From the NCBI RefSeq assembly GCF_003334355.1, contig NZ_QOWP01000020.1: 64,000 nt of DNA. The stretch is one strand, 5' to 3'. The number at the start of each line of letters is the position of its first letter. The first letter of the stretch is position 1. The position numbers and the translations under genes were made by a program. The DNA comes from Escherichia coli. Its GTDB lineage: Bacteria; Pseudomonadota; Gammaproteobacteria; Enterobacterales; Enterobacteriaceae. Shown in pieces: positions 1 to 27,425 of the stretch. The notes beneath the pieces are model-generated. The model did no database searches and was not told the DNA's origin. It was given only the letters and a program-made list of their open reading frames with translations.

Positions 1-1
1 G

Positions 2-619
2 GAAAAACGAGTATTTTTAGTCATCCTGTTTACCTCTTTCTCAGGGAGTTTAGTCTCCAGGATTTCCGGGGCGGTTCAGAAGGAGGGGTATCGCCTACGC
101 TTTCATACCGGCAATAAGCAACGTATTTATTCCCTTTTGCATGACGGGAGCGCCGATCTCGCTGTTACCGCATCTATGCCTGATGACCGTCTGTACGGCT
201 ATGCACATCTACTGACTGAACGCATGCTCCTTGTTCATGCTCCCGCCATGTCAGAGATCATCGGATCAGAACCTGGTGCTGAAACGCTTGCCTCATTACC
301 GCTGATTGCTTATGACGAAGAGTTGCCACTGATTAGAGCGCTCTGGGCCTCCATGTTTCAGAGAGCCCCTGAGATGCAGGCTACATTCACCATTCCGGAT
401 TTACGTATTATCCGCGACTTGGTCTGTGACGGCCACGGGTGGACAGTGCTGCCGGATTATCACTGTGACAATGACCTGAAAAGTGGTCGCCTGATTTCAG
501 TGACACCTGCAGACCTCGCTCCGACTAATCATCTTTATCTGGTCTGGAACAAAAGGACGGCTAATAACAGCCGAACCGCCTATGTTCGGGATTACATTCT
601 TAAAACGTTTCCGCGTTGA
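2..619 (+). CDS. LysR-type transcriptional regulator, C-terminal effector-binding portion; 5' end lies upstream of the window
   Basis: Frame is open from the window edge to the stop at 617-619; the track ORF starts at an internal TTG (137). Assignment to LysR family is from overall sequence pattern, not a search. Confidence 0.5.
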   Translation, partial: EKRVFLVILFTSFSGSLVSRISGAVQKEGYRLRFHTGNKQRIYSLLHDGSADLAVTASMPDDRLYGYAHLLTERMLLVHAPAMSEIIGSEPGAETLASLPLIAYDEELPLIRALWASMFQRAPEMQATFTIPDLRIIRDLVCDGHGWTVLPDYHCDNDLKSGRLISVTPADLAPTNHLYLVWNKRTANNSRTAYVRDYILKTFPR

Positions 620-663
620 TGTTTGAAACGGATGATTGGCGATGCGTATCATAAGTTACGTAT

Positions 664-700
664 GTCCGCTTCTGGCACAAAGCAGACGCCCACTCTCACG
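664..700. repeat. Imperfect ~37-bp hairpin-containing repeat, copy A (GTCCGCT-TCTGGCACAA-AGCAGAC)
   Basis: About 28/38 identity to copy B at 4337-4373; 7-bp arms with a conserved TGGCACAAAGC core. Read directly. Confidence 0.5.
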
Positions 701-749
701 CGAATGCTTTGCCCTTGACTTGCCAACAACCGTATCGCTTGCTCCGCAA

Positions 750-2027
750 CTATGGTTTTTTATTAGAATCTTCGCCACTAAATAAATTATAATAAATTGA
801 TTTTATTAGATATCTGTCAGAATCTATATGGTCAGCACGAGTAGCATGCTCTAATGTTTCAAATGCTAGGGTTTGTGCGGCTTCAGCAAAAATTCCAGGC
901 CAACCCTTACTCAGCATCGACAGTCCTTTAAGTACCCTTATCTGAATTTCCCTCATACTGGCACCATCGCGCGCAACAGGTGAGAAAAAGTCTTCAAGTA
1001 GATCGTTATTCTGAAGTGGTGCAACATGTACAGAAGGATATTTCACTTCTATTTCATCAGATTTATTCTGCGCGTAAGCGGAAAGTATACGTACACCTCT
1101 GCCAATGACATCAATGGCGGTTCCAGGATCGTTCACTGCGGGGGAAAGGGCTCGGCAGGCTATTTCGGCCATGACGCTAAGACAAAATCGGGGGTCCTGA
1201 GCAAATGAACGTACATCCGAGACAATAATCGTCTCAAGTAAATCGGTGCTGATTGATGACTCCTGGCCCTGACTCAGGTACAAAACTGGCGTGGACGGAT
1301 GTATGAAACTGCCCGGCTGCGCCACGAGGTATACATGACGGGGATCATTGGTCAGCAGCTTGCTGAGTTTCACCATATCAACATATTCAACATAGCCAAT
1401 CTTTTTCGGATAAACTGCAACCGTTCCTTTCGGCTGTTCATTGTTCTCAAGCCATGGATATCCGCCGAGACAGGGATTTCTTGCTCTCGCAATAAATGTT
1501 TCGATGGCCGCCTGTTCTACTTTTGCCGTTGTCTCACCAACCCTCCCCAGAGAGGTCAAATGCTGTATCCAGCGAAGCAATGTGATGAGGATTAAGGCAA
1601 TGACAACCAGTGTTACAATGAATAAAATGACTCTCCCCCTTTCTCCATAAGCTCCCATATTGAGGGCAATAATCCCTACCAGACTGAAGAGAAAAGAACC
1701 GATGAAGGTGGCCAGTACATTTTGTGTGGTGACGTCTTCAACAACTAAACGAGTAGCTCTGGGAGTCACATTAGTAGTGGCTGAACCGTAGGCTGTGACC
1801 ATGATGCTCAGCGAAAATGTGGTCACTGCCAGCATACTCGATGCCAGTATGTTCAGAATGTTATCGACTGCTTCCGCACCAACCTTCACGGAAACCGACT
1901 CAGGTATCATTGATTTAAAAAGAATTGATAAAAGGGCCGTTATTATTGCGACAATTGCGAATAACGTTGCCCTGAACCATAGTTTTTTAAATGTCTGCTT
2001 CAGCATCCATTTCCAGCGTGAAATCAT
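750..2027 (-). CDS. DUF2254-like integral membrane protein (four N-terminal TM helices plus soluble C-terminal domain)
   Basis: ORF 750..2042; start moved to the second ATG (MISRWKW) which has a GAGGG RBS about 8 nt upstream. Four hydrophobic segments in the first ~150 aa. Gene is AT-rich compared with neighbours. Confidence 0.55.
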   Translation of the reverse strand: MISRWKWMLKQTFKKLWFRATLFAIVAIITALLSILFKSMIPESVSVKVGAEAVDNILNILASSMLAVTTFSLSIMVTAYGSATTNVTPRATRLVVEDVTTQNVLATFIGSFLFSLVGIIALNMGAYGERGRVILFIVTLVVIALILITLLRWIQHLTSLGRVGETTAKVEQAAIETFIARARNPCLGGYPWLENNEQPKGTVAVYPKKIGYVEYVDMVKLSKLLTNDPRHVYLVAQPGSFIHPSTPVLYLSQGQESSISTDLLETIIVSDVRSFAQDPRFCLSVMAEIACRALSPAVNDPGTAIDVIGRGVRILSAYAQNKSDEIEVKYPSVHVAPLQNNDLLEDFFSPVARDGASMREIQIRVLKGLSMLSKGWPGIFAEAAQTLAFETLEHATRADHIDSDRYLIKSIYYNLFSGEDSNKKP

Positions 2028-2052
2028 TCTGCATTCCCTCATATTGCAGCCG

Positions 2053-2081
2053 GGATAAATAAATGCCGCCTCTGTGGCGGC
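2053..2081 (-). terminator. Candidate intrinsic terminator/attenuator between the BCCT gene and the DUF2254 gene
   Basis: GCCGCC-N5-GGCGGC hairpin (2065-2081) followed on the minus strand by AUUUAUUUAU, starting about 10 nt after the BCCT stop. Confidence 0.4.
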
Positions 2082-2090
2082 ATGTTGCTG

Positions 2091-4094
2091 TTAACGAACC
2101 AGATGCAGGAAGTGCAGGTGTTTTTCGTACTGGTCCAGTATGTCATTAATCAGCTGTTCCTGATTCCAGCCCATTACATCATAATTTTGGCCGCCCTCTT
2201 TGAGATAGACTTCAGCGCGATAATATCGATGTTGTTCACTCTGCTGCTCATCATTATCCAGCGCAGCGAGCGCGAAGGTCGGTGAGTTATACCCGCGAAG
2301 CCTCACTTCATATATATAATTCAGCTCGTTGCCCAAATCGACTTCAAGGCGAATACGATCCTCGGCGGCGTCACTGATGTGGCTTATCGTTCCCTGCTTG
2401 TTAAGTTCCTCCTGAACCAGCGTCATGGCGGGTTGGATAATGTCGTCCATAAAACGTTTCACAAGAGAGCGCTTCGGCAAATACGCGATATTGCGTAACC
2501 TTCTCTGCCAGGGAATTGGGTTACGTGCAGCCGTAGGAGCAATAGTCGCCATGCTAAGGCTTTCACGCTTGGTCAAATCCCGACGCAGGGCTTTTAACAG
2601 TCCGTATATGGATATTAATAAGATAACTGAGAAGGGCAATGCACTCGCTATCGTTACGGTTTGCAACGCACTCAGCCCCCCTGCGATCAGCAGGGCAATA
2701 GCAACAACGCCCATGAGCGATGCCCAGAAAATTCGCTGCCAGACGGGCGTGTTTGCCACCCCACCTGATGCCAGAGTATCCACAACCATTGCCCCCGAAT
2801 CAGCAGACGTTACAAAGAAGACGATGACCATCGCCATTGCAATGAATGACAGCACGGAAGAGAACGGGAAATGCTCCAGGAAATTAAACAGGGCAAGCGC
2901 AACATCCTGCTGAACGGTATTGGCGAGGTCAGTGGCGCCCTGGTTCATGATGAGATAGATGGCGCTGTTTCCAAACACCGTCATCCACATGAGCGTAAAG
3001 CCGGCGGGAACAAACAACACGCCAGTCACGAACTCACGAATTGTCCTGCCGCGGGAAACGCGTGCAATGAACATACCTACAAACGGCGACCATGAAAGCC
3101 ACCATCCCCAGTATAATAATGTCCAGCCCCCCAGCCAGTTGCTCGACTTGGGTTCATACGCGTAAAGGTTGAACGTTTTACTCACCAGTTCCGACAGATA
3201 ACCACCCGTATTTTCCACAAATGACTTCAGCAGAAGCACAGTGGGACCCAGGCACAAGACCAGCGCCAGGAGCAACACCGCCAGGCCCAGATTAAGCTCA
3301 GACAGGATGCGTATTCCCTTGTCCAGGCCGGACACCACCGAAATCGTCGCTAACCCCGTGATGACCACGATCAAAATGACCTGTACCGTTTCATTGATGG
3401 GCACGCCGAAAAGATGGTTCAAACCGGCATTCACCTGCAATACACCGTAACCCAGCGATGTTGCAACGCCAAAGACAGTGCCTATCACGGCGAAGATATC
3501 AACCGCGTGGCCTATAGGCCCGTAAATGCGATCGCCGATAATGGGATAGAGCGCAGAACGCAGCGTTAAAGGCAGACCGTGACGGTAACTGAAAAAGGCC
3601 AGAATCAGCGCCACGATGGCATAAATTGCCCATGCGTGCAGACCCCAGTGGAAGAACGTCAGGCGCATGGCTTCCTTCGCTGCCGCAACGGTCTCTGGAG
3701 TGCCGACAGGTGGCGAAAGATAATGCATCACAGGTTCGGCAACGCCAAAGAACATCAGGCCGATCCCCATCCCTGCCGAAAAAAGCATCGCGAACCAGGA
3801 GTGGTAGCTGAAATCAGGCTGCGCATGGTCTGGGCCCAGCTTTATATCACCGTAACGTGAGAGTCCAAGGAACGTGACGCTCAGTAAAATCAGGGCCACA
3901 GCAAGTATGTAGAACCAGCTGGCATTCGTGAAGATTTGTTGCTGAAGTAGTTTAAAATTTTTGTCGGCGACATCCGGGAATACGGCGGCAAAGGCGACAA
4001 GAAGGAAAATTAGCAAAGCAGATGTAAAGAATACCGCTTTGTTAATCTGGCTTGTAGACTTCTTTGGGGTTGTATCATTTTCACTCATAATCAT
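2091..4094 (-). CDS. BCCT-family transporter (betaine/carnitine/choline type), BetT-like with long C-terminal cytoplasmic extension
   Basis: 667-aa ORF. Conserved BCCT motifs (GWTLLYWGWWLSWSPFVGMFIARVSRGRTIREF) and overall similarity to E. coli BetT recalled from memory; clearly not identical to betT, caiT or yeaV. Confidence 0.8.
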   Translation of the reverse strand: MIMSENDTTPKKSTSQINKAVFFTSALLIFLLVAFAAVFPDVADKNFKLLQQQIFTNASWFYILAVALILLSVTFLGLSRYGDIKLGPDHAQPDFSYHSWFAMLFSAGMGIGLMFFGVAEPVMHYLSPPVGTPETVAAAKEAMRLTFFHWGLHAWAIYAIVALILAFFSYRHGLPLTLRSALYPIIGDRIYGPIGHAVDIFAVIGTVFGVATSLGYGVLQVNAGLNHLFGVPINETVQVILIVVITGLATISVVSGLDKGIRILSELNLGLAVLLLALVLCLGPTVLLLKSFVENTGGYLSELVSKTFNLYAYEPKSSNWLGGWTLLYWGWWLSWSPFVGMFIARVSRGRTIREFVTGVLFVPAGFTLMWMTVFGNSAIYLIMNQGATDLANTVQQDVALALFNFLEHFPFSSVLSFIAMAMVIVFFVTSADSGAMVVDTLASGGVANTPVWQRIFWASLMGVVAIALLIAGGLSALQTVTIASALPFSVILLISIYGLLKALRRDLTKRESLSMATIAPTAARNPIPWQRRLRNIAYLPKRSLVKRFMDDIIQPAMTLVQEELNKQGTISHISDAAEDRIRLEVDLGNELNYIYEVRLRGYNSPTFALAALDNDEQQSEQHRYYRAEVYLKEGGQNYDVMGWNQEQLINDILDQYEKHLHFLHLVR

Positions 4095-4336
4095 TTATTC
4101 CATTAATTAAATCCGCACTGGATAGAAGGTACTACCTCTCACAGAGTAGCAAAGTTCAACTGGCTATGCGGGGTTAATCGGAATGCATGGTGGAATGAGT
4201 GCCGATACAAATCATCCTATATTCTAAGGAGTTTTAAGTTACTCAGCCTGCCAATTACTGGGGCATTTAATTTGTATGATCTGTATCAAAGCTGGGATAT
4301 AAGTTAAGTGAAGTATATTAGGCACGAATTACCAGC

Positions 4337-4373
4337 GTCTGCTCTTGGCACAAAGCGGACAACCACGCTAGCT
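4337..4373. repeat. Imperfect ~37-bp hairpin-containing repeat, copy B (GTCTGCT-CTTGGCACAA-AGCGGAC)
   Basis: Pairs with copy A at 664-700; the two copies bracket the BCCT-DUF2254 gene pair. Confidence 0.5.
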
Positions 4374-4428
4374 CTACCCTGTGCCACAAAATGTCAATTT
4401 GCATCTGAACTAATGCACTTTAATCTCG

Positions 4429-4851
4429 TCACTTCAATAAATACCGAACATCCCCCTGATAAAACGACAATATGCGCTGCATAACTTCGCTCTTCCGGCA
4501 CTCGCGACAGATTATGTTTAGGCGACTGTCGTAGCGACGTATTTCTCCGTCAGGTAATGACCAGATAAGGTCCGGATCAACCACAACCGGTTTCTTCAGC
4601 TTTGCCCTCGATAATTTTTTGCGGGCATTTTGCCAGTCTTTACGAGCCTGTTCAGACGGGAATAACCCGTAGCCAGAATTGTATACATCGCCACTGGCAA
4701 CCAGCTCTCTGGCCAGAACGCTCATCAGATATCTTGTTGCCCCAGTTTTAGCTTCCAGTTGTCGTAACGTCTCGCGCCCACTCTGGCGTACGAGTTCAAG
4801 AACCTGCCCTTTAATTTTTTCCCGCTCTTCTTGTGTAAAAACTTTTGCCAC
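4429..4851 (-). CDS. Hypothetical prophage protein, 140 aa, basic, possible winged-helix segment
   Basis: ORF directly downstream of the ydaU-like gene; no Walker A motif, so not the DnaC-like ydaV expected at this position in K-12 Rac. No family recognised. Confidence 0.45.
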   Translation of the reverse strand: MAKVFTQEEREKIKGQVLELVRQSGRETLRQLEAKTGATRYLMSVLARELVASGDVYNSGYGLFPSEQARKDWQNARKKLSRAKLKKPVVVDPDLIWSLPDGEIRRYDSRLNIICRECRKSEVMQRILSFYQGDVRYLLK

Positions 4852-4891
4852 AAGCCCTCCTGAAAATTACCTCATGACCAGAAATTAACAC

Positions 4892-5968
4892 TTACCCCCT
4901 GAAGCCCGGCGGAATTTCGTTATCCGGTTCAGAAATATGATTCACACAACGCTGGTTGTTCGTGCCGCTTACCGGGAGCAACCAGGGGTTCTCAAAATTC
5001 CGGTCCGGTCCAAAAAACGTCGTCGCTCGCTGAACAAATTCCGTTCCCGTTTTCCCGGTAGCCGCCAAGTATCTTGCGTAACGCCTCACGCCATCCAGCA
5101 TGGCCTCTGGTGGCACCCCCTCGCGTAATCTGGCCTTCCAGGCACTGAAAGCGGATTTCTTCGGGTTTGCCCCAGCACGCAACGGGTACTCCCGCCAGAC
5201 CTGTTCGAACACATCCGGATAATCCACTCGTCCCACAGACTGCCCGGTGTTTTCCGGGACTACCCGATCGGCTTCCCGCTGAATGGCGGAATCGGCTTCA
5301 GGCTGCTGCAGTTGGTGTGATTGCTCCGCCCTTGCGGTCATCACCTGCTGCACAGCGCCCGAATCGGCTTTCAGCGCATACGCTGAATCGGCTTCCGGTG
5401 TCGTGCCTGCTGGCTGACCAAGATTGACGGTCTGAACATCCCCTGCCTGGTTCGTGGCGTTTTTTACGCCATGGACCATAGTGTTTTGATCTTCTTGATC
5501 TGTATCTTTATCTGTATCTTTATCTGTCGTGACTCGTCGTGACATGTGCGTGACATTTCGTGACGCGCCGTGACAATCGCCATTTTGTTCCCGCTTTCTT
5601 TCCCTCTCTCGCTGCGCCCTCTTGCGCTCTGCAGGAGATTTTGCGGTTTGCGAAATATTGCCGTTGTCCTCTTTAAGCACCTGGCGTTTTTCCCATCCAG
5701 TGATTAAATCACCATCAAGTACCCGCCCCTGCATCGTCTGCAAAATTGAATCAATTACCTCTTCTGTCACGTCGAGCGCACTTGCCAAATCTTCTGTCGT
5801 GACATCAATGTGACCTCGCGTGACATTTCGTGACGCGCTCACCAGGAGGTGGATATACACTGCCATCACTGTTGCAATTGGCTGTCCTGACACCCTGGCA
5901 ATTGTTCGCCACTTAGGGTCATTTGGCATGTCATGCCATAATCTGAGCCAGGCGTTAGCCATACTCAC
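4892..5968 (-). CDS. ydaU: YdaU-like prophage replication protein (DUF1376-like N-terminus, DnaT-like C-terminus, repeat-rich acidic linker)
   Basis: 358-aa ORF next to ydaT as in K-12 Rac; contains internal DNA direct repeats. Longer than the 285 aa I recall for K-12 YdaU, so treated as ydaU-like. Confidence 0.55.
   Translation of the reverse strand: MSMANAWLRLWHDMPNDPKWRTIARVSGQPIATVMAVYIHLLVSASRNVTRGHIDVTTEDLASALDVTEEVIDSILQTMQGRVLDGDLITGWEKRQVLKEDNGNISQTAKSPAERKRAQRERERKREQNGDCHGASRNVTHMSRRVTTDKDTDKDTDQEDQNTMVHGVKNATNQAGDVQTVNLGQPAGTTPEADSAYALKADSGAVQQVMTARAEQSHQLQQPEADSAIQREADRVVPENTGQSVGRVDYPDVFEQVWREYPLRAGANPKKSAFSAWKARLREGVPPEAMLDGVRRYARYLAATGKTGTEFVQRATTFFGPDRNFENPWLLPVSGTNNQRCVNHISEPDNEIPPGFRG
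5526..5576. repeat. Iteron-like cluster 1: five CGTGAC direct repeats at 10-11 bp spacing, preceded by an AT-rich TATCTT/TATCTG repeat tract (5489-5527)
   Basis: CGTGAC at 5528, 5538, 5549, 5559, 5569; read directly. Confidence 0.6.
5797..5836. repeat. Iteron-like cluster 2: four (C/T)GTGAC direct repeats at 10-11 bp spacing, plus an inverted GTCACG at 5767-5772
   Basis: Repeats at 5798, 5809, 5819, 5829; the 19-mer GCGTGACATTTCGTGACGCG is shared with cluster 1. Confidence 0.6.
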
Positions 5969-6033
5969 CTCTTTTGATACCGAATCTTTTTACTCACAAA
6001 TTGCCGGAAGTGATCCGGTATGAATATTGCGCG

Positions 6034-6459
6034 TCAATGCACAGCCACAATATTTCCTGCAGGGCCACCACGATTCATCTGGTTGAAACCAGCGATCGCC
6101 ACTGCGACAAAATCATCAGCGTCTCTCACCAGTCGTTCCCGCGTCTCCACTAGTTCCCGAAAATAGGCTGAGCTATGGCTGCGCATTCGGGCCACCAGCA
6201 GAGGTGGCATTGCTTTTTCGATAGCTGGTAACAACGCCTGAATTTTTTCAACTGCATCAGGGGTGTCTTTCTCTACCCAGCGGAAAATTTTCTGGGTATT
6301 GCGAGCCAGGGCTTCCGGATGGCTGTCGTCATACAGTTCTGGGAACGTCATACCCAGTTCAAAATAAGCCCTGGTTATTTCAGCTGCCGGAACTTTTTCA
6401 CCGTCCGGATGCGCCCAGGCATTCATCGCCATGCGGATGTGTTCATGCTTGATTTTCAT
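6034..6459 (-). CDS. ydaT: Rac prophage YdaT-like protein (toxic when derepressed)
   Basis: 141-aa ORF at the K-12 ydaT position, overlapping the upstream ydaS by 17 bp. Confidence 0.65.
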   Translation of the reverse strand: MKIKHEHIRMAMNAWAHPDGEKVPAAEITRAYFELGMTFPELYDDSHPEALARNTQKIFRWVEKDTPDAVEKIQALLPAIEKAMPPLLVARMRSHSSAYFRELVETRERLVRDADDFVAVAIAGFNQMNRGGPAGNIVAVH

Positions 6460-6724
6460 GAATCAAGCTCCTAGAAAGTGGTTGTGTTAACATTTTGGTA
6501 TCTTCCAGCTCGGGCCAAATATTCATCCAATCAAAAGGCCTTAGTTGCTGACGTGTAACTTCACCATTACTGGCTCGCTCAATAAGGACACATAACGATG
6601 CCCCTAACACTTGACCTTTACTCAATGCCTTTCTTAGATAACCGATGCTGGTACCACACTCGCATGCAAACATACGCTGTTCATCTGACGAAAGAGAATT
6701 GAGAAATATTCTTAATTCTTCCAT
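6443..6724 (-). CDS. ydaS: Rac prophage YdaS-like HTH protein
   Basis: 93-aa ORF divergent from racR, first gene of the ydaS-ydaT pair. Confidence 0.6.
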   Translation of the reverse strand: MEELRIFLNSLSSDEQRMFACECGTSIGYLRKALSKGQVLGASLCVLIERASNGEVTRQQLRPFDWMNIWPELEDTKMLTQPLSRSLIHENQA

Positions 6725-6752
6725 AGCTACTCCTTAGTAAACACAGCAAAGA

Positions 6753-6828
6753 ATACCCATAGGTAAACAAAAGTCAATACCCACAGGTTGTTTACCTTGC
6801 AGTAATCGCATCTATTATTTACCTATGG
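6753..6828. promoter_or_regulatory. Divergent racR / ydaS-ydaT control region with repeated ATACCCATAGGTA-type operator half-sites
   Basis: ATACCCATAGGTAAAC (6753-6768), TACCCACAGGTTGTTTACC (6778-6796) and its inverted copy TATTTACCTATGG (6816-6828, overlapping the racR start). Confidence 0.5.
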
Positions 6829-7244
6829 ACAAATATGAATTTAGACGACAGCAACTCATCAAAATTCGTGATGAGAAATGCGATGGTAAAGCGGTTAACG
6901 TGGCCAGAAAGATCGGGCGCGAGCCTTCTTATGTATCAAGAATGTTGTACCCAGAGGGGAAAAAGGGAAAAAAACGGATCGCTGATGATATGGTGGAGAT
7001 TATCGAAGAGTCCTTTGGGTTACCCCGGGGATGGATGGATGGTATCGTTTCATCATCAACGAACACAGCCTCCAGTTATGAAACAAGGGTTCTAACGCCA
7101 CGACAACGTATTTTTTTAGATCTCTTAGACGAACTGCCAGAAAGTGAAGCGGATAACTTATTAAAAACTCTTGAAGAGAAAAAACAGTATTACAATATGA
7201 TCTACGAAGAAATCCGTAAAAAGAAAGCACAAAACGCATCATAG
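6825..7244 (+). CDS. racR: RacR-like prophage repressor (XRE/HTH-like)
   Basis: 139-aa ORF divergent from ydaS-ydaT, at the K-12 racR position; no in-frame upstream start before the stop at 6738. Confidence 0.6.
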   Translation: MDKYEFRRQQLIKIRDEKCDGKAVNVARKIGREPSYVSRMLYPEGKKGKKRIADDMVEIIEESFGLPRGWMDGIVSSSTNTASSYETRVLTPRQRIFLDLLDELPESEADNLLKTLEEKKQYYNMIYEEIRKKKAQNAS

Positions 7245-7285
7245 CTCACCAAACAACTAGTCACCAGTTAAGACACCGTAAAAAG

Positions 7286-7324
7286 TTACCCATGGGTATT
7301 TACTTTTTAAATACCTATGGGTAT
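7286..7324. promoter_or_regulatory. Operator-like palindromes downstream of racR and upstream of ydaG-ydaF
   Basis: Perfect 12-bp palindrome TACCCATGGGTA (7287-7298) and 14-bp near-palindrome ATACCTATGGGTAT (7311-7324), same motif family as the racR upstream sites. Confidence 0.5.
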
Positions 7325-7498
7325 CCTTCTTTTCATACCAACCCACCCCGCCCCACAGAATGCAGGGCAATACTTCGAGTTACCAGGCAGTGGTCAGGGG
7401 TTAAGTAGCCAGCCCGAGGCGTAAGAACATGACGGCGGGATTCAAATTTTGCAGTGCAGCAGTTAGTTCCGCCACCCGGCGTTAAGGGGAGAGATAAG

Positions 7499-7633
7499 AT
7501 GGTGCATTACGAAGTAGTTCAGTATTTGATGGATTGTTGCGGTATCACTTACAACCAGGCTGTGCAGGCTTTACGCAGCAACGACTGGGATCTCTGGCAG
7601 GCAGAAGTCGCTATACGTAGCAACAAGATGTGA
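7499..7633 (+). CDS. ydaG: Rac prophage small protein YdaG (44 aa)
   Basis: ATG preceded by a GGGGAG RBS; below the track's 60-aa cutoff, translated by hand; position matches K-12 order racR-ydaG-ydaF-sieB. Confidence 0.55.
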   Translation: MVHYEVVQYLMDCCGITYNQAVQALRSNDWDLWQAEVAIRSNKM

Positions 7634-7643
7634 GATTCGCAAA

Positions 7644-7799
7644 ATGCAAAAAATCGACCTCGGCAACAACGAATCCCTGGTGTGCGGCGTGTTCCCCAAC
7701 CAGGATGGAACGTTCACTGCCATGACGTATACCAAAAGCAAAACATTTAAAACCGAAACTGGTGCGCGCCGATGGTTGGAGAAGCACACAGTAAGCTAA
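7644..7799 (+). CDS. ydaF: Rac prophage small protein YdaF (51 aa)
   Basis: Hand-translated (MQKIDLGNNESLVCGVFPNQDGTFTAMTYTKSKTFKTETGARRWLEKHTVS); below the track cutoff. Confidence 0.55.
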   Translation: MQKIDLGNNESLVCGVFPNQDGTFTAMTYTKSKTFKTETGARRWLEKHTVS

Positions 7800-8284
7800 C
7801 GATTAAAACGTCTACTCCTGCTGTTCCAGAATAACTTCATAAAATGGGAGTATTTTTCGGTGACGAGATAATAAGAACAGTTTGCGCTATCACTCTGATG
7901 TTGAATGATGCCCTTCCGTTCTAATTTTTTCATAACCGGGTTACGGCAAGGAGAAGTGATAATAAGATTTCCTGTTTTAAGGAAATCTTTAAATACAGCG
8001 ATTTCTTTCTCAGATAAACGAAGCAATACTCGTTGCTCTGGTAGTAATGAATAATGCTTTTGAATATGTGCTCGCAATCTTGAGAAGGAAATGGCGACCA
8101 CGAAAGAAAAGGCAAAAACGATAATCTGAAAGAGCCAAGGTATTTCAGTATAAGCATTGAATGCGACAGTAAACTCTTTCGGTATCAGCCAGAGAGTGAG
8201 ACCAAAAATGATAATCGTATACATAAGTCTTTCGAGTGGCTCGTTAGCAAAAAGTTTCAACAATGGAGTAAATACATCCAACAT
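7796..8284 (-). CDS. sieB: Superinfection exclusion protein SieB
   Basis: 162-aa product starting MLDVFTPLL at an internal ATG of the 203-aa track ORF; matches recalled SieB length and sequence. Confidence 0.8.
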   Translation of the reverse strand: MLDVFTPLLKLFANEPLERLMYTIIIFGLTLWLIPKEFTVAFNAYTEIPWLFQIIVFAFSFVVAISFSRLRAHIQKHYSLLPEQRVLLRLSEKEIAVFKDFLKTGNLIITSPCRNPVMKKLERKGIIQHQSDSANCSYYLVTEKYSHFMKLFWNSRSRRFNR

Positions 8285-13027: not shown

Positions 13028-13222
13028 ATGAGATATGACAATGTTAAACCATGTCCATTTTGTGGTTGTCCATCAGTAACGGTGAAAGCCATTTCAGGAT
13101 ATTACCGAGCGAAGTGTAACGGATGCGAATCCCGAACCGGTTATGGTGGAAGTGAAAAAGAAGCACTCGAAAGATGGAATAAACGAACCACTGGAAATAA
13201 TAATGGAGGTGTTCATGTATAA
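13028..13222 (+). CDS. ralR: RalR (Lar), restriction alleviation protein and type I TA toxin
   Basis: 64-aa product MRYDNVKPCPFCGC... from an internal ATG of the track ORF. Confidence 0.8.
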   Translation: MRYDNVKPCPFCGCPSVTVKAISGYYRAKCNGCESRTGYGGSEKEALERWNKRTTGNNNGGVHV

Positions 13223-13424
13223 AATTACCGCCACTATTGAAAAGGAAGGTGGCACTCCTACTAACTGGACAAGATATTCAAAATCTAAACTAACGAAATC
13301 AGAATGCGAAAAAATGCTCTCAGGTAAAAAAGAAGCAGGCGTTTCCAGAGAGCAGAAAGTAAAACTGATAAATTTTAATTGCGAGAAACTTCAGTCCTCG
13401 AGAATTGCATTGTATTCAAATTAA
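13215..13424 (+). CDS. ydaC: YdaC
   Basis: 69-aa product MYKITATIEKEGG... with a GGAGG RBS; overlaps the ralR stop. Confidence 0.75.
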   Translation: MYKITATIEKEGGTPTNWTRYSKSKLTKSECEKMLSGKKEAGVSREQKVKLINFNCEKLQSSRIALYSN

Positions 13425-13719: not shown

Positions 13720-14955
13720 ATGTCTAAATTACCAACAGGTGTCGAGATTAGAGGTAGATACATTCGCATCTGGTTCATGTTTCGAGGAAAACGATGTCGG
13801 GAAACATTAAAAGGCTGGGAGATTACAAACAGTAATATTAAAAAGGCCGGAAATTTAAGAGCGCTGATAGTTCATGAAATAAACTCCGGTGAATTTGAGT
13901 ATTTAAGACGTTTTCCCCAGTCCAGCACTGGGGCAAAAATGGTGACAACGAGAGTCATAAAAACGTTCGGAGAGCTTTGTGATATCTGGACAAAAATTAA
14001 AGAGACAGAGTTAACAACAAACACAATGAAGAAAACGAAATCACAATTAAAAACACTCAGAATAATAATTTGTGAAAGTACCCCGATATCACATATTCGT
14101 TATAGCGATATCTTAAACTACCGGAATGAACTGCTGCATGGAGAAACGCTTTACCTGGATAATCCAAGATCCAACAAAAAAGGAAGAACCGTGCGCACAG
14201 TTGATAACTATATCGCCCTGCTCTGTTCGCTGTTGCGTTTTGCGTATCAGTCGGGATTTATATCAACCAAACCATTTGAAGGAGTAAAAAAATTACAGCG
14301 AAACAGAATAAAGCCTGATCCGTTATCTAAAACAGAATTCAATGCATTAATGGAAAGTGAAAAAGGACAGAGCCAGAACTTGTGGAAATTTGCCGTTTAC
14401 TCAGGACTTCGTCACGGGGAACTGGCAGCTCTGGCGTGGGAGGATGTGGATCTCGAAAAGGGAATAGTGAATGTCAGAAGAAACCTGACGATACTTGATA
14501 TGTTCGGTCCCCCAAAAACAAATGCCGGGATCCGAACAGTAACACTACTGCAGCCTGCTCTTGAAGCACTGAAGGAGCAATACAAACTGACCGGGCATCA
14601 TCGCAAAAGCGAAATCACCTTTTATCATCGGGAGTACGGCAGAACCGAAAAGCAAAAACTGCATTTTGTTTTCATGCCCAGGGTGTGTAACGGAAAACAA
14701 AAACCTTATTACTCGGTAAGCAGTTTGGGGGCAAGGTGGAATGCAGCAGTAAAACGTGCTGGTATTCGCCGCCGTAATCCGTACCATACGCGGCATACTT
14801 TTGCCTGCTGGCTGTTGACGGCAGGAGCGAACCCGGCATTTATAGCCAGCCAAATGGGGCATGAAACTGCGCAGATGGTGTATGAAATTTACGGTATGTG
14901 GATTGATGACATGAACGACGAACAGATAGCCATGTTGAATGCGCGGTTATCGTAG
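13720..14955 (+). CDS. intR: Rac prophage tyrosine integrase IntR
   Basis: 411-aa ORF with the tyrosine recombinase C-terminal region (RHTFA...); adjacent to ttcA as in K-12. Ends with TAG. Confidence 0.9.
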   Translation: MSKLPTGVEIRGRYIRIWFMFRGKRCRETLKGWEITNSNIKKAGNLRALIVHEINSGEFEYLRRFPQSSTGAKMVTTRVIKTFGELCDIWTKIKETELTTNTMKKTKSQLKTLRIIICESTPISHIRYSDILNYRNELLHGETLYLDNPRSNKKGRTVRTVDNYIALLCSLLRFAYQSGFISTKPFEGVKKLQRNRIKPDPLSKTEFNALMESEKGQSQNLWKFAVYSGLRHGELAALAWEDVDLEKGIVNVRRNLTILDMFGPPKTNAGIRTVTLLQPALEALKEQYKLTGHHRKSEITFYHREYGRTEKQKLHFVFMPRVCNGKQKPYYSVSSLGARWNAAVKRAGIRRRNPYHTRHTFACWLLTAGANPAFIASQMGHETAQMVYEIYGMWIDDMNDEQIAMLNARLS

Positions 14956-17704: not shown

Positions 17705-17826
17705 AAAAAAAAGCCGACTCATCAAAGTCGGCGTCGTACGAATCAATTGTGCTATGCAGTAATTCAAAAAAGGAAGTAAGACAATATGGAGCGCAACGCC
17801 CATCGCTTGACGTTGCATTCACCTGC
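17705..17826 (-). ncRNA. fnrS: FnrS small RNA (FNR-activated)
   Basis: Reverse complement reads GCAGGTGAATGCAACGTCAAGCGATGGGCG...GCCGACTTTGATGAGTCGGCTTTTTTTT, matching recalled FnrS including its terminator. Confidence 0.85.
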
Positions 17827-21203: not shown

Positions 21204-21298
21204 ACCGGCGCAGAGGAGACAATGCCGGATTTAAGACGCGGATGCACTGCTGTGTGTACTGTAGAGTCTGGCGGATGTCGACAGACTCTATTTTTTTA
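21204..21298 (+). ncRNA. mcaS: McaS (IsrA) small RNA
   Basis: ACCGGCGCAGAGGAGACAATGCCGGATTTAAGACGCGGATGCACTGCTGTGTGTACTGTAGAGTCTGGCGGATGTCGACAGACTCTATTTTTTT, matching recalled McaS with its terminator; lies in the abgR-smrA intergenic region. Confidence 0.8.
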
Positions 21299-21305
21299 TG
21301 CAGTT

Positions 21306-26715: not shown

Positions 26716-27231
26716 ATGCTGAGATTACTTGAAGAAAAAATTGCCACGCCACTGGGTCCACTGTGGGTGATTTGCGATGAGCAATTTCGCCTGCGGGCGG
26801 TTGAATGGGAAGAGTACAGCGAACGCATGGTGCAGCTGCTGGACATCCATTATCGCAAAGAAGGCTATGAGCGCATTTCTGCCACCAATCCAGGCGGTTT
26901 AAGCGACAAGCTTCGTGAATATTTTGCCGGTAATCTTAGCATTATTGATACGCTTCCCACTGCTACGGGGGGGACGCCATTTCAGCGCGAAGTCTGGAAA
27001 ACACTACGCACTATCCCCTGCGGGCAGGTAATGCATTACGGCCAACTGGCTGAGCAATTGGGCCGTCCTGGCGCGGCGCGTGCCGTTGGTGCGGCAAACG
27101 GATCGAATCCCATCAGCATCGTCGTACCTTGCCATCGGGTTATTGGCCGAAACGGCACCATGACCGGATATGCAGGCGGAGTTCAGCGAAAAGAGTGGTT
27201 ATTGCGCCATGAAGGTTATCTTTTGCTGTAA
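26716..27231 (+). CDS. ogt: O6-alkylguanine-DNA methyltransferase Ogt
   Basis: 171 aa; PCHRV active-site motif. Confidence 0.9.
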
Positions 27232-27425
27232 ACATTAAACAATTTGTGCCAGCTTGTTCACACTTTTATGTAAAGTTACCCTTAGCAACTTAAGGGTTTT
27301 CAAATAGATAGACATATATTTACATCTAATATCGGAATTCTCTGCTGTTAAGGTTTGCTTAGGCTTACTTGCTCCCTAAAAAGATGTTAAAATTGACAAA
27401 TATCAATTACGGCTTGAGCAGACCT

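Follow-up and report, generated by a model that had tools for sequence, protein, structure and literature searches.

A previously unannotated intrinsic terminator hairpin between betU and a co-directional DUF2254 gene in Escherichia coli

The betU-DUF2254 gene pair and its start codons

We analysed a stretch of 64,000 nucleotides of Escherichia coli DNA (the window throughout this text). Near its beginning two genes lie one after the other on the minus strand, the first encoding a BCCT-family transporter and the second a DUF2254 membrane protein, and the short gap between them carries a hairpin followed by a U-rich tail. In the direction of transcription, the features are the following:

2091..4088 (open reading frame to 4094), minus strand: betU allele, BCCT-family glycine-betaine/proline-betaine transporter, 665 aa (NCBIfam BetT subfamily, TIGR00842, RefSeq, identity to Tn6062)
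2084..2090, minus strand: 7-nt spacer CAGCAAC between the TAA stop and the hairpin (sequence)
2063..2083, minus strand: betU terminator hairpin, 8-bp stem and 5-nt loop, AUGCCGCC-ACAGA-GGCGGCAU (scan match, fold, covariation, RNAalifold)
2053..2062, minus strand: interrupted U-rich tail UUAUUUAUCC (scan, sequence)
2028..2052, minus strand: short DUF2254 leader with the Shine-Dalgarno sequence GAGGGA at about 2039-2034 and a non-conserved ATG at 2042-2040 (allele alignments)
750..2027 (open reading frame 750-2042), minus strand: DUF2254 membrane-protein gene, 425 aa, homologue of SPAP0105 of Tn6062 (Pfam PF10011)

The product of the first gene matches the NCBIfam BetT subfamily model with 752 bits, and TIGR00842 as well. 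As it is 98% identical at the amino acid level to BetU of Tn6062 and 42% identical to BetT of K-12, the gene is an allele of betU. The second protein matches Pfam PF10011 with an E value of 2e-92 and is 98% identical to the Tn6062 copy. The family matches (BetT subfamily and PF10011) thus bear out the gene calls of a preliminary description of this DNA, made from the sequence alone. The starts of the longest open reading frames are probably not the real ones for either gene. The window is collinear at 99.8% identity with E. coli ECCWS199, where RefSeq places the DUF2254 start at 2027 and the BCCT start at 4088; this PGAP start of betU lies 6 nt downstream of the first ATG of the frame, so that 4089-4094 is excluded. 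Diverged alleles retain the ATG at 2027 along with a GAGG-type Shine-Dalgarno sequence, GAGGGA lying 6-9 nt before this conserved ATG; the ATG at 2042, by contrast, has disappeared from them or is out of frame. The ATG at 2042 was therefore ruled out as the DUF2254 start, since it is not conserved across alleles.

A GC-rich hairpin with a U-rich tail follows the betU stop codon

Read on the minus strand, the intergenic region has the order TAA-CAGCAAC-AUGCCGCC-ACAGA-GGCGGCAU-UUAUUUAUCC-CGGCUGCAAUAUGAGGGAAUGCAGA-AUG. Folding and terminator scanning both place on this strand the GC-rich hairpin and U-rich tract that had been described between the BCCT and DUF2254 genes at 2053-2081. These coordinates are essentially right: the G+C core starts with base 2081, and the U-rich tail runs to 2053. 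The distance of 10 nt from the BCCT stop agrees as well, since the TAA at 2093-2091 is separated by 7 nt from the full stem and by 9 nt from the G+C core, which begins at the tenth nucleotide. The gap from the betU stop to the conserved DUF2254 ATG (2027) measures 63 nt, of which 35 nt separate the stem from that ATG, and only 20 nt lie between the end of the stem and the non-conserved first ATG (2042).

Six of the eight stem pairs are G-C pairs. The hairpin has a folding energy of -14.9 kcal/mol (z = -4.06), and none of 200 dinucleotide shuffles of the minus strand was equally stable. In the tail, UUAUUUAU, U occupies six of the first eight positions and three U touch the G+C core, yet the tract is interrupted, and the longest U run in the U-tract of the window allele (UUUAUUUAU) is 3. 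The annotation records that we examined list no regulatory feature here.

Since the palindrome folds both ways (centroid of -16 kcal/mol on the plus strand) and the scan also lists a plus-strand site with the tail GUUGCUGUUA, we considered a plus-strand or bidirectional function, in which the hairpin would halt antisense transcription that comes from the side of DUF2254 and enters betU. On that strand, however, the z value reaches only -2.4, 4 of 200 shuffles being equally stable, and the orthologues always have their T-tract on the coding strand of betU. We ruled out a plus-strand function on the poorer tail and on the absence of any plus-strand gene that ends at the hairpin, and regard this reading as very improbable.

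The hairpin is neither a chance palindrome nor a dispersed repeat

Terminator prediction across the junction lists the hairpin in both a loose and a strict scan. The loose consensus scan is unspecific: it returned 13 terminator-like sites in 8 kb in comparison to 8.0 +/- 3.0 in shuffled sequences. For that reason we ran a stricter scan over both strands of the 64 kb, which demanded a perfect stem of 7 bp or more, with 5 or more G-C pairs, and a T at 6 or more of the 9 positions that follow. Only 3 sites were found, whereas 40 dinucleotide shuffles yielded 0.125 on average, and all three are 3' ends of genes or of an sRNA, namely the betU hairpin, the FnrS terminator (17713-17732; Rfam FnrS match at 17709-17826, minus strand) and a site between the convergent genes uspE and ynaJ.

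The lack of specificity of the loose scan would suit a palindrome that arose by chance, or one that belongs to a dispersed REP/BIME-like repeat, with no role specific to this locus. The z value of the fold and the outcome of the strict scan speak against it, as do the covariation of the stem (below) and the distribution of the junction among genomes. A 51-nt query centred on the hairpin found the junction in 1407 of 5426 complete E. coli genomes, at a median of 1 place per genome, and every listed match lies under or next to a BCCT gene. A REP/BIME-like repeat is ruled out by this single copy and constant adjacency to betU. A search of window positions 1-8000 with the covariance models of Rfam 15 left the junction unmatched even at E<=1, which also rules out a known RNA family. 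The reading as chance or dispersed repeat is effectively refuted.

The stem is conserved with compensatory changes

Among six alleles with 86-100% DNA identity the stem is kept and the loop varies (ACAGA, CUGGG, CUAGGG, UGCC); one C-to-U change in the stem yields a G.U pair. For wider sampling, one genome per species was scanned with a degenerate pattern of the BetU C-terminus, DQYEKHLHFLH. This gave 93 BetT-like junctions, among which a hairpin with a T-tract right after the stop is common, and 8 new loci with DUF2254 downstream. At these 8 loci the hairpin is always present and DUF2254 always begins 58-69 nt past the stop, so that all nine linked loci, together with the plasmid and island alleles, keep both the hairpin and the 58-69 nt spacing from stop to start.

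In an alignment of the nine diverged DUF2254-linked junctions, 93% of cells are paired in the stem, and three of the eight stem pairs show compensatory double changes (U-A to A-U or C-G, G-C to A-U, and C-G to U-A). When, as a control, the 3' partner was slid by 1 to 3 columns, 33-60% of cells were paired and at most one compensatory pair appeared. RNAalifold, applied to the same junctions, recovers the hairpin independently. This covariation across diverged loci supports the stem. A fold of 101 nt of the single sequence had suggested another structure, a long-range helix between CUGCACUUCC at the 3' end of betU and the Shine-Dalgarno region of DUF2254. We rejected this helix as a means of translational coupling by sequestering the Shine-Dalgarno sequence, since RNAalifold does not recover it on the nine junctions and it is weaker in other alleles. 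Its 5' side consists of the invariant LHFLH codons, whose likeness to an anti-Shine-Dalgarno sequence would seem to be due to chance.

Taken with its conservation, the stable G+C-rich stem-loop, the adjoining U-rich tract and the position close to the stop codon are the hallmarks of intrinsic termination. The hairpin is a previously unannotated but wholly typical intrinsic terminator within a known cassette, and not a new type of element.

The hairpin belongs to betU

Orthologues of BetU with 92-95% amino acid identity occur without DUF2254 in Serratia, Citrobacter, Enterobacter cloacae, Cedecea, Phytobacter and Pantoea. Several of these loci (Serratia, Citrobacter, Enterobacter, Cedecea) carry a homologous hairpin, UGCCG(U/C)CC-loop-GGGCGGCA, with an uninterrupted tract of U5-U7. 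When the window was compared with DUF2254-less loci by blastn, the homology ran from the coding region through the hairpin and its tail and stopped at 2051-2063. The gene after betU is convergent in S. marcescens UMH3, where its translation reads as lysS-like, and in C. freundii, where it reads as a LysR-type-like regulator. Since orthologues without DUF2254 share the hairpin and the homology ends past the U-tract, the hairpin is the ancestral terminator of betU itself, which would end a monocistronic betU unit where the partner gene is absent. The preliminary description had presented the hairpin as a feature of the junction; its terminator anatomy stands, but it had missed that orthologues lacking DUF2254 carry the betU terminator too.

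The placement of DUF2254 directly beyond the hairpin is an old arrangement in the linked lineage, because the identity of DUF2254 goes down to 68-74% where that of BetU is 92-95% and the spacing is unchanged. Independent gains of DUF2254 at one and the same spacing seem unlikely. The figures come from three linked loci (L016, L025 and L037) compared with window positions 750-4088, and the gap in identity between the two adjoining proteins suggests either that the genes are constrained very differently or that one partner was replaced by recombination.

Transcription of DUF2254 probably crosses the hairpin

A search for sigma-70-like promoter sites on the gene strand between 2000 and 2700 found none scoring at least 9/12. 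Four matches of 8/12 were found, all inside betU and upstream of the hairpin. The weak matches of this class in the 3' coding region of betU are conserved among alleles; they could feed DUF2254, though still by way of the hairpin. Past the stem, the tail of the window allele contains no TAnnnT hexamer, and the 35 nt up to the ATG are filled by the tail and the Shine-Dalgarno sequence. We thus rejected a sigma-70-like promoter between the hairpin and DUF2254, and since there seems to be no room for one in this gap, transcription from upstream must cross the hairpin in order to reach the gene. Independent expression from such a promoter, one of two options in the preliminary description, is accordingly disfavoured.

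The other option, attenuated read-through, is the best remaining model and agrees with the interrupted U-tract, the 7-nt spacer and the fixed spacing of 58-69 nt. With no sigma-70-like site of at least 9/12 past the hairpin, partial termination with read-through is also the most economical one. Our preferred explanation, to which we give a probability of roughly 0.6, is that the hairpin is the Rho-independent (intrinsic) terminator of betU, inherited together with betU, and that it acts only partially. Most RNA polymerases from the betU promoter would probably halt at the hairpin and leave a stable betU mRNA, while a minority would continue past it, so that less of DUF2254 is made. Two properties of the junction may aid this leakiness, namely the interruption of the U-tract (UUUAUUUAU) and the stop codon 7 nt before the stem, as a terminating ribosome could hinder folding. 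Spacers shorter than about 20 nt between stop and hairpin lower termination through ribosome hindrance, according to Li et al. as cited in a preprint (bioRxiv 10.64898/2026.07.06.736697). Termination in vivo, its partial character and the dependence of DUF2254 on read-through are all inferred here from sequence.

DUF2254 is absent from many orthologous betU loci and so is dispensable for the carriage of betU; for this reason, its level of expression may be under no selection. A more elaborate form of partial termination, gated by the ribosome, would have read-through rise with ribosome density on betU, e.g., upon osmotic induction, and would thereby tie DUF2254, as an accessory osmoprotection factor, to the synthesis of BetU. 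We consider this extension doubtful.

In the strength of their U-tracts the alleles differ. With a T-tail score after d'Aubenton-Carafa, used for description only, the window allele reaches 3.1-3.7 in comparison to 4.7 for S. marcescens and 5.1 for FnrS, and the O104:H4 and pHCM1/Klebsiella alleles reach 1.65-1.85. The commonest E. coli allele and the pHCM1/Klebsiella allele have poor U-tracts (AUUAUUAUC, AUUAUUUAU), with T-tail scores of 1.65-1.85, next to a conserved stem. A systematic weakening of the U-tract in linked loci fits the E. coli, Klebsiella and Salmonella alleles, but we rejected it as a rule, as it fails for the distant linked loci L025 and L037. Because these two have U6-U7 tracts, leakiness does not appear to be a conserved design feature.

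Poor U-tracts beside a conserved stem, as in the weakly scoring alleles, are also what could be expected of an mRNA-stability element. Here the pair would be co-transcribed with little termination, and, once the transcript has been processed, the hairpin would block 3'-to-5' exonucleases so that the betU segment outlives that of DUF2254. The orthologues with convergent neighbours, however, combine the hairpin with a canonical U5-U7 tract, which is the anatomy of a terminator, and the window allele itself has three U right after the stem and U at 6/8 positions. We therefore find it rather improbable that stabilisation is the main function, although the two roles are compatible and not mutually exclusive.

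At the opposite end, the hairpin could be an efficient, near-complete terminator, with DUF2254 either transcribed from an unrecognised promoter (non-consensus, sigma-S, activator-dependent or overlapping the hairpin and U-tract) or carried as a silent passenger. Its stability is similar to that of bona fide terminators elsewhere in the window, the distant linked loci with strong U6-U7 tracts still have an intact DUF2254 frame, and homologues of DUF2254 occur alone elsewhere. Moreover, the U-tract region of the O104:H4 allele scores as a weak -10-like TATTAT (8/12), with the stem serving as -35. An own promoter, on the other hand, would have to fit into the occupied 35-nt gap of the window allele, where neither the hexamer nor a site of at least 9/12 is present. 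A silent gene is hard to reconcile with an intact frame of 425 aa that is 98% identical across alleles, which argues for an expressed and selected gene, and with a spacing that stays fixed even where DUF2254 identity is only 68-74%. Complete termination is thus unlikely in our judgement.

Comparison with known systems

With canonical intrinsic terminators such as those of FnrS and uspE/ynaJ, the betU hairpin shares a G+C-rich 8-bp stem, a loop of 4-5 nt, a U-rich tail directly 3' of the stem, a place just past the stop on the coding strand, a folding energy between -12 and -15 kcal/mol and conservation through compensatory changes. It differs from them in the interrupted U-tract (UUUAUUUAU, longest run 3, versus U6-U8), in a stem that begins 7 nt past the stop, and in what follows, which is a co-directional gene 35 nt on and not a convergent gene or a long spacer. 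Partial terminators within operons are known between the co-directional genes rplL-rpoB, rpsU-dnaG and rpsO-pnp. The betU hairpin resembles these in lying between genes of the same strand, the distal one without a recognisable promoter, and a lower expression of the distal gene would be expected here as well. The betU terminator, in contrast, predates the pairing or is common to DUF2254-less orthologues, and tuning need not be what it evolved for. REP/BIME palindromes are likewise intergenic and, e.g., between malE and malF, stabilise the upstream mRNA segment. As a G+C-rich palindrome between co-directional genes, the betU hairpin could stabilise upstream mRNA in the same way; unlike them, it occurs once per genome, does not resemble dispersed repeats and has a U-tract behind it.

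Contexts and spread of the betU-DUF2254 cassette

At least part of the cassette is present in 1966 of 5426 complete E. coli genomes and on 1531 plasmids, of which 1266 are from Klebsiella. The betU gene of uropathogenic E. coli, the subject of work by Ly et al. in 2004, is reportedly present in about a third of isolates, and our count of genomes with at least part of the cassette fits this share. A LysR gene and genes of the Rac prophage, and not IS1, border the pair both in the window and in the near-identical genome. Elsewhere the pair is found in IS1 composites, in the O104:H4 island beside capU/virK/lpxM and on IncF plasmids (Klebsiella), the two genes and their spacer of 62-63 nt travelling together across contexts. 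The Rac cargo block (window 1-4428; 1-27601 of locus L001) comprises betU-DUF2254 together with LysR, gamma-glutamylcyclotransferase, MFS transporter and DUF1971 genes. It lies between the replication/immunity-side genes and the late genes, and trkG is on the same prophage.

A close relative is found in Tn6062, an IS1 composite transposon of IncHI1 PST6 plasmids, which carries betU (SPAP0106) and a second 'putative transporter', SPAP0105 (Holt et al. 2011, PMC3139670). In the passages of that paper considered here, the two coding sequences, cloned as a 3,405-bp fragment, are reported to allow growth of S. Typhi in 0.8 M NaCl, and IncHI1 PST6 plasmids to owe a growth advantage under high-salt conditions to betU; the same passages contain no mention of an intergenic hairpin. 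The published primers match locus L002 exactly at 1411-1430 and 4790-4811, a span of 3,401 bp that includes the hairpin. One of them also matches the window exactly, at 760-779, and no site for the second is present there at up to 3 mismatches. Tn6062 and the window have the same two genes, 98% identical as proteins, in the same order, with a 62-63 nt spacer and a homologous hairpin. The window pair differs in that it is not flanked by IS1 but sits in the larger cargo block of the Rac prophage, and it is a distinct allele, with about 93% DNA identity overall and 82-84% over the 51-nt junction.

In two plasmids, one of Klebsiella quasipneumoniae (L005) and one of Enterobacter hormaechei (L006), an IS903B transposase gene follows betU at about 900-2740, and no DUF2254 coding sequence is listed in their gene tables, which are incomplete; DUF2254 has apparently been truncated by IS903B. 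Since betU and the hairpin are intact in both, betU seems to be the selected gene of the pair. A lone DUF2254 homologue with 51% identity lies on a plasmid of Burkholderia sp. PAMC 28687 (L009, 1-6685), where its neighbours are genes for an MscS-type mechanosensitive channel, a ClC chloride channel and a Na+/H+ antiporter. By analogy, this neighbourhood hints at a role of DUF2254 in ion or osmotic stress.

The value of the present findings lies mainly in annotation, as the hairpin marks the 3' end of betU and the start codon of DUF2254 is corrected. Beyond that, the fraction of read-through would tell whether, and in what ratio, DUF2254 and BetU are co-expressed, and would give a first handle on the function of DUF2254, a gene which was co-cloned with betU in the only functional test, as far as the passages of Holt et al. 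2011 (PMC3139670) go.

Other features of the window

Three regions of the window match Rfam families above the gathering score, namely the RalA antitoxin sRNA of Rac (13221-13399, minus strand), FnrS (17709-17826, minus strand) and McaS (21204-21299, plus strand). The terminator scan also brought up two long palindromes on the plus strand. The first, at 7287-7323, has a 16-bp stem (TACCCATGGGTATTTA...TAAATACCTATGGGTA) and lies between genes of the Rac early region; the second, at 5448-5478, has a 13-bp stem and lies within the coding sequence of a hypothetical protein (4892-5962). Both may be operator or terminator sites. In the annotated genome that is 99.8% identical to the window, the Rac integrase gene intR is a pseudogene with an internal stop (window equivalent at about 13720-14955), and ogt is frameshifted (window equivalent at about 26719-27233).
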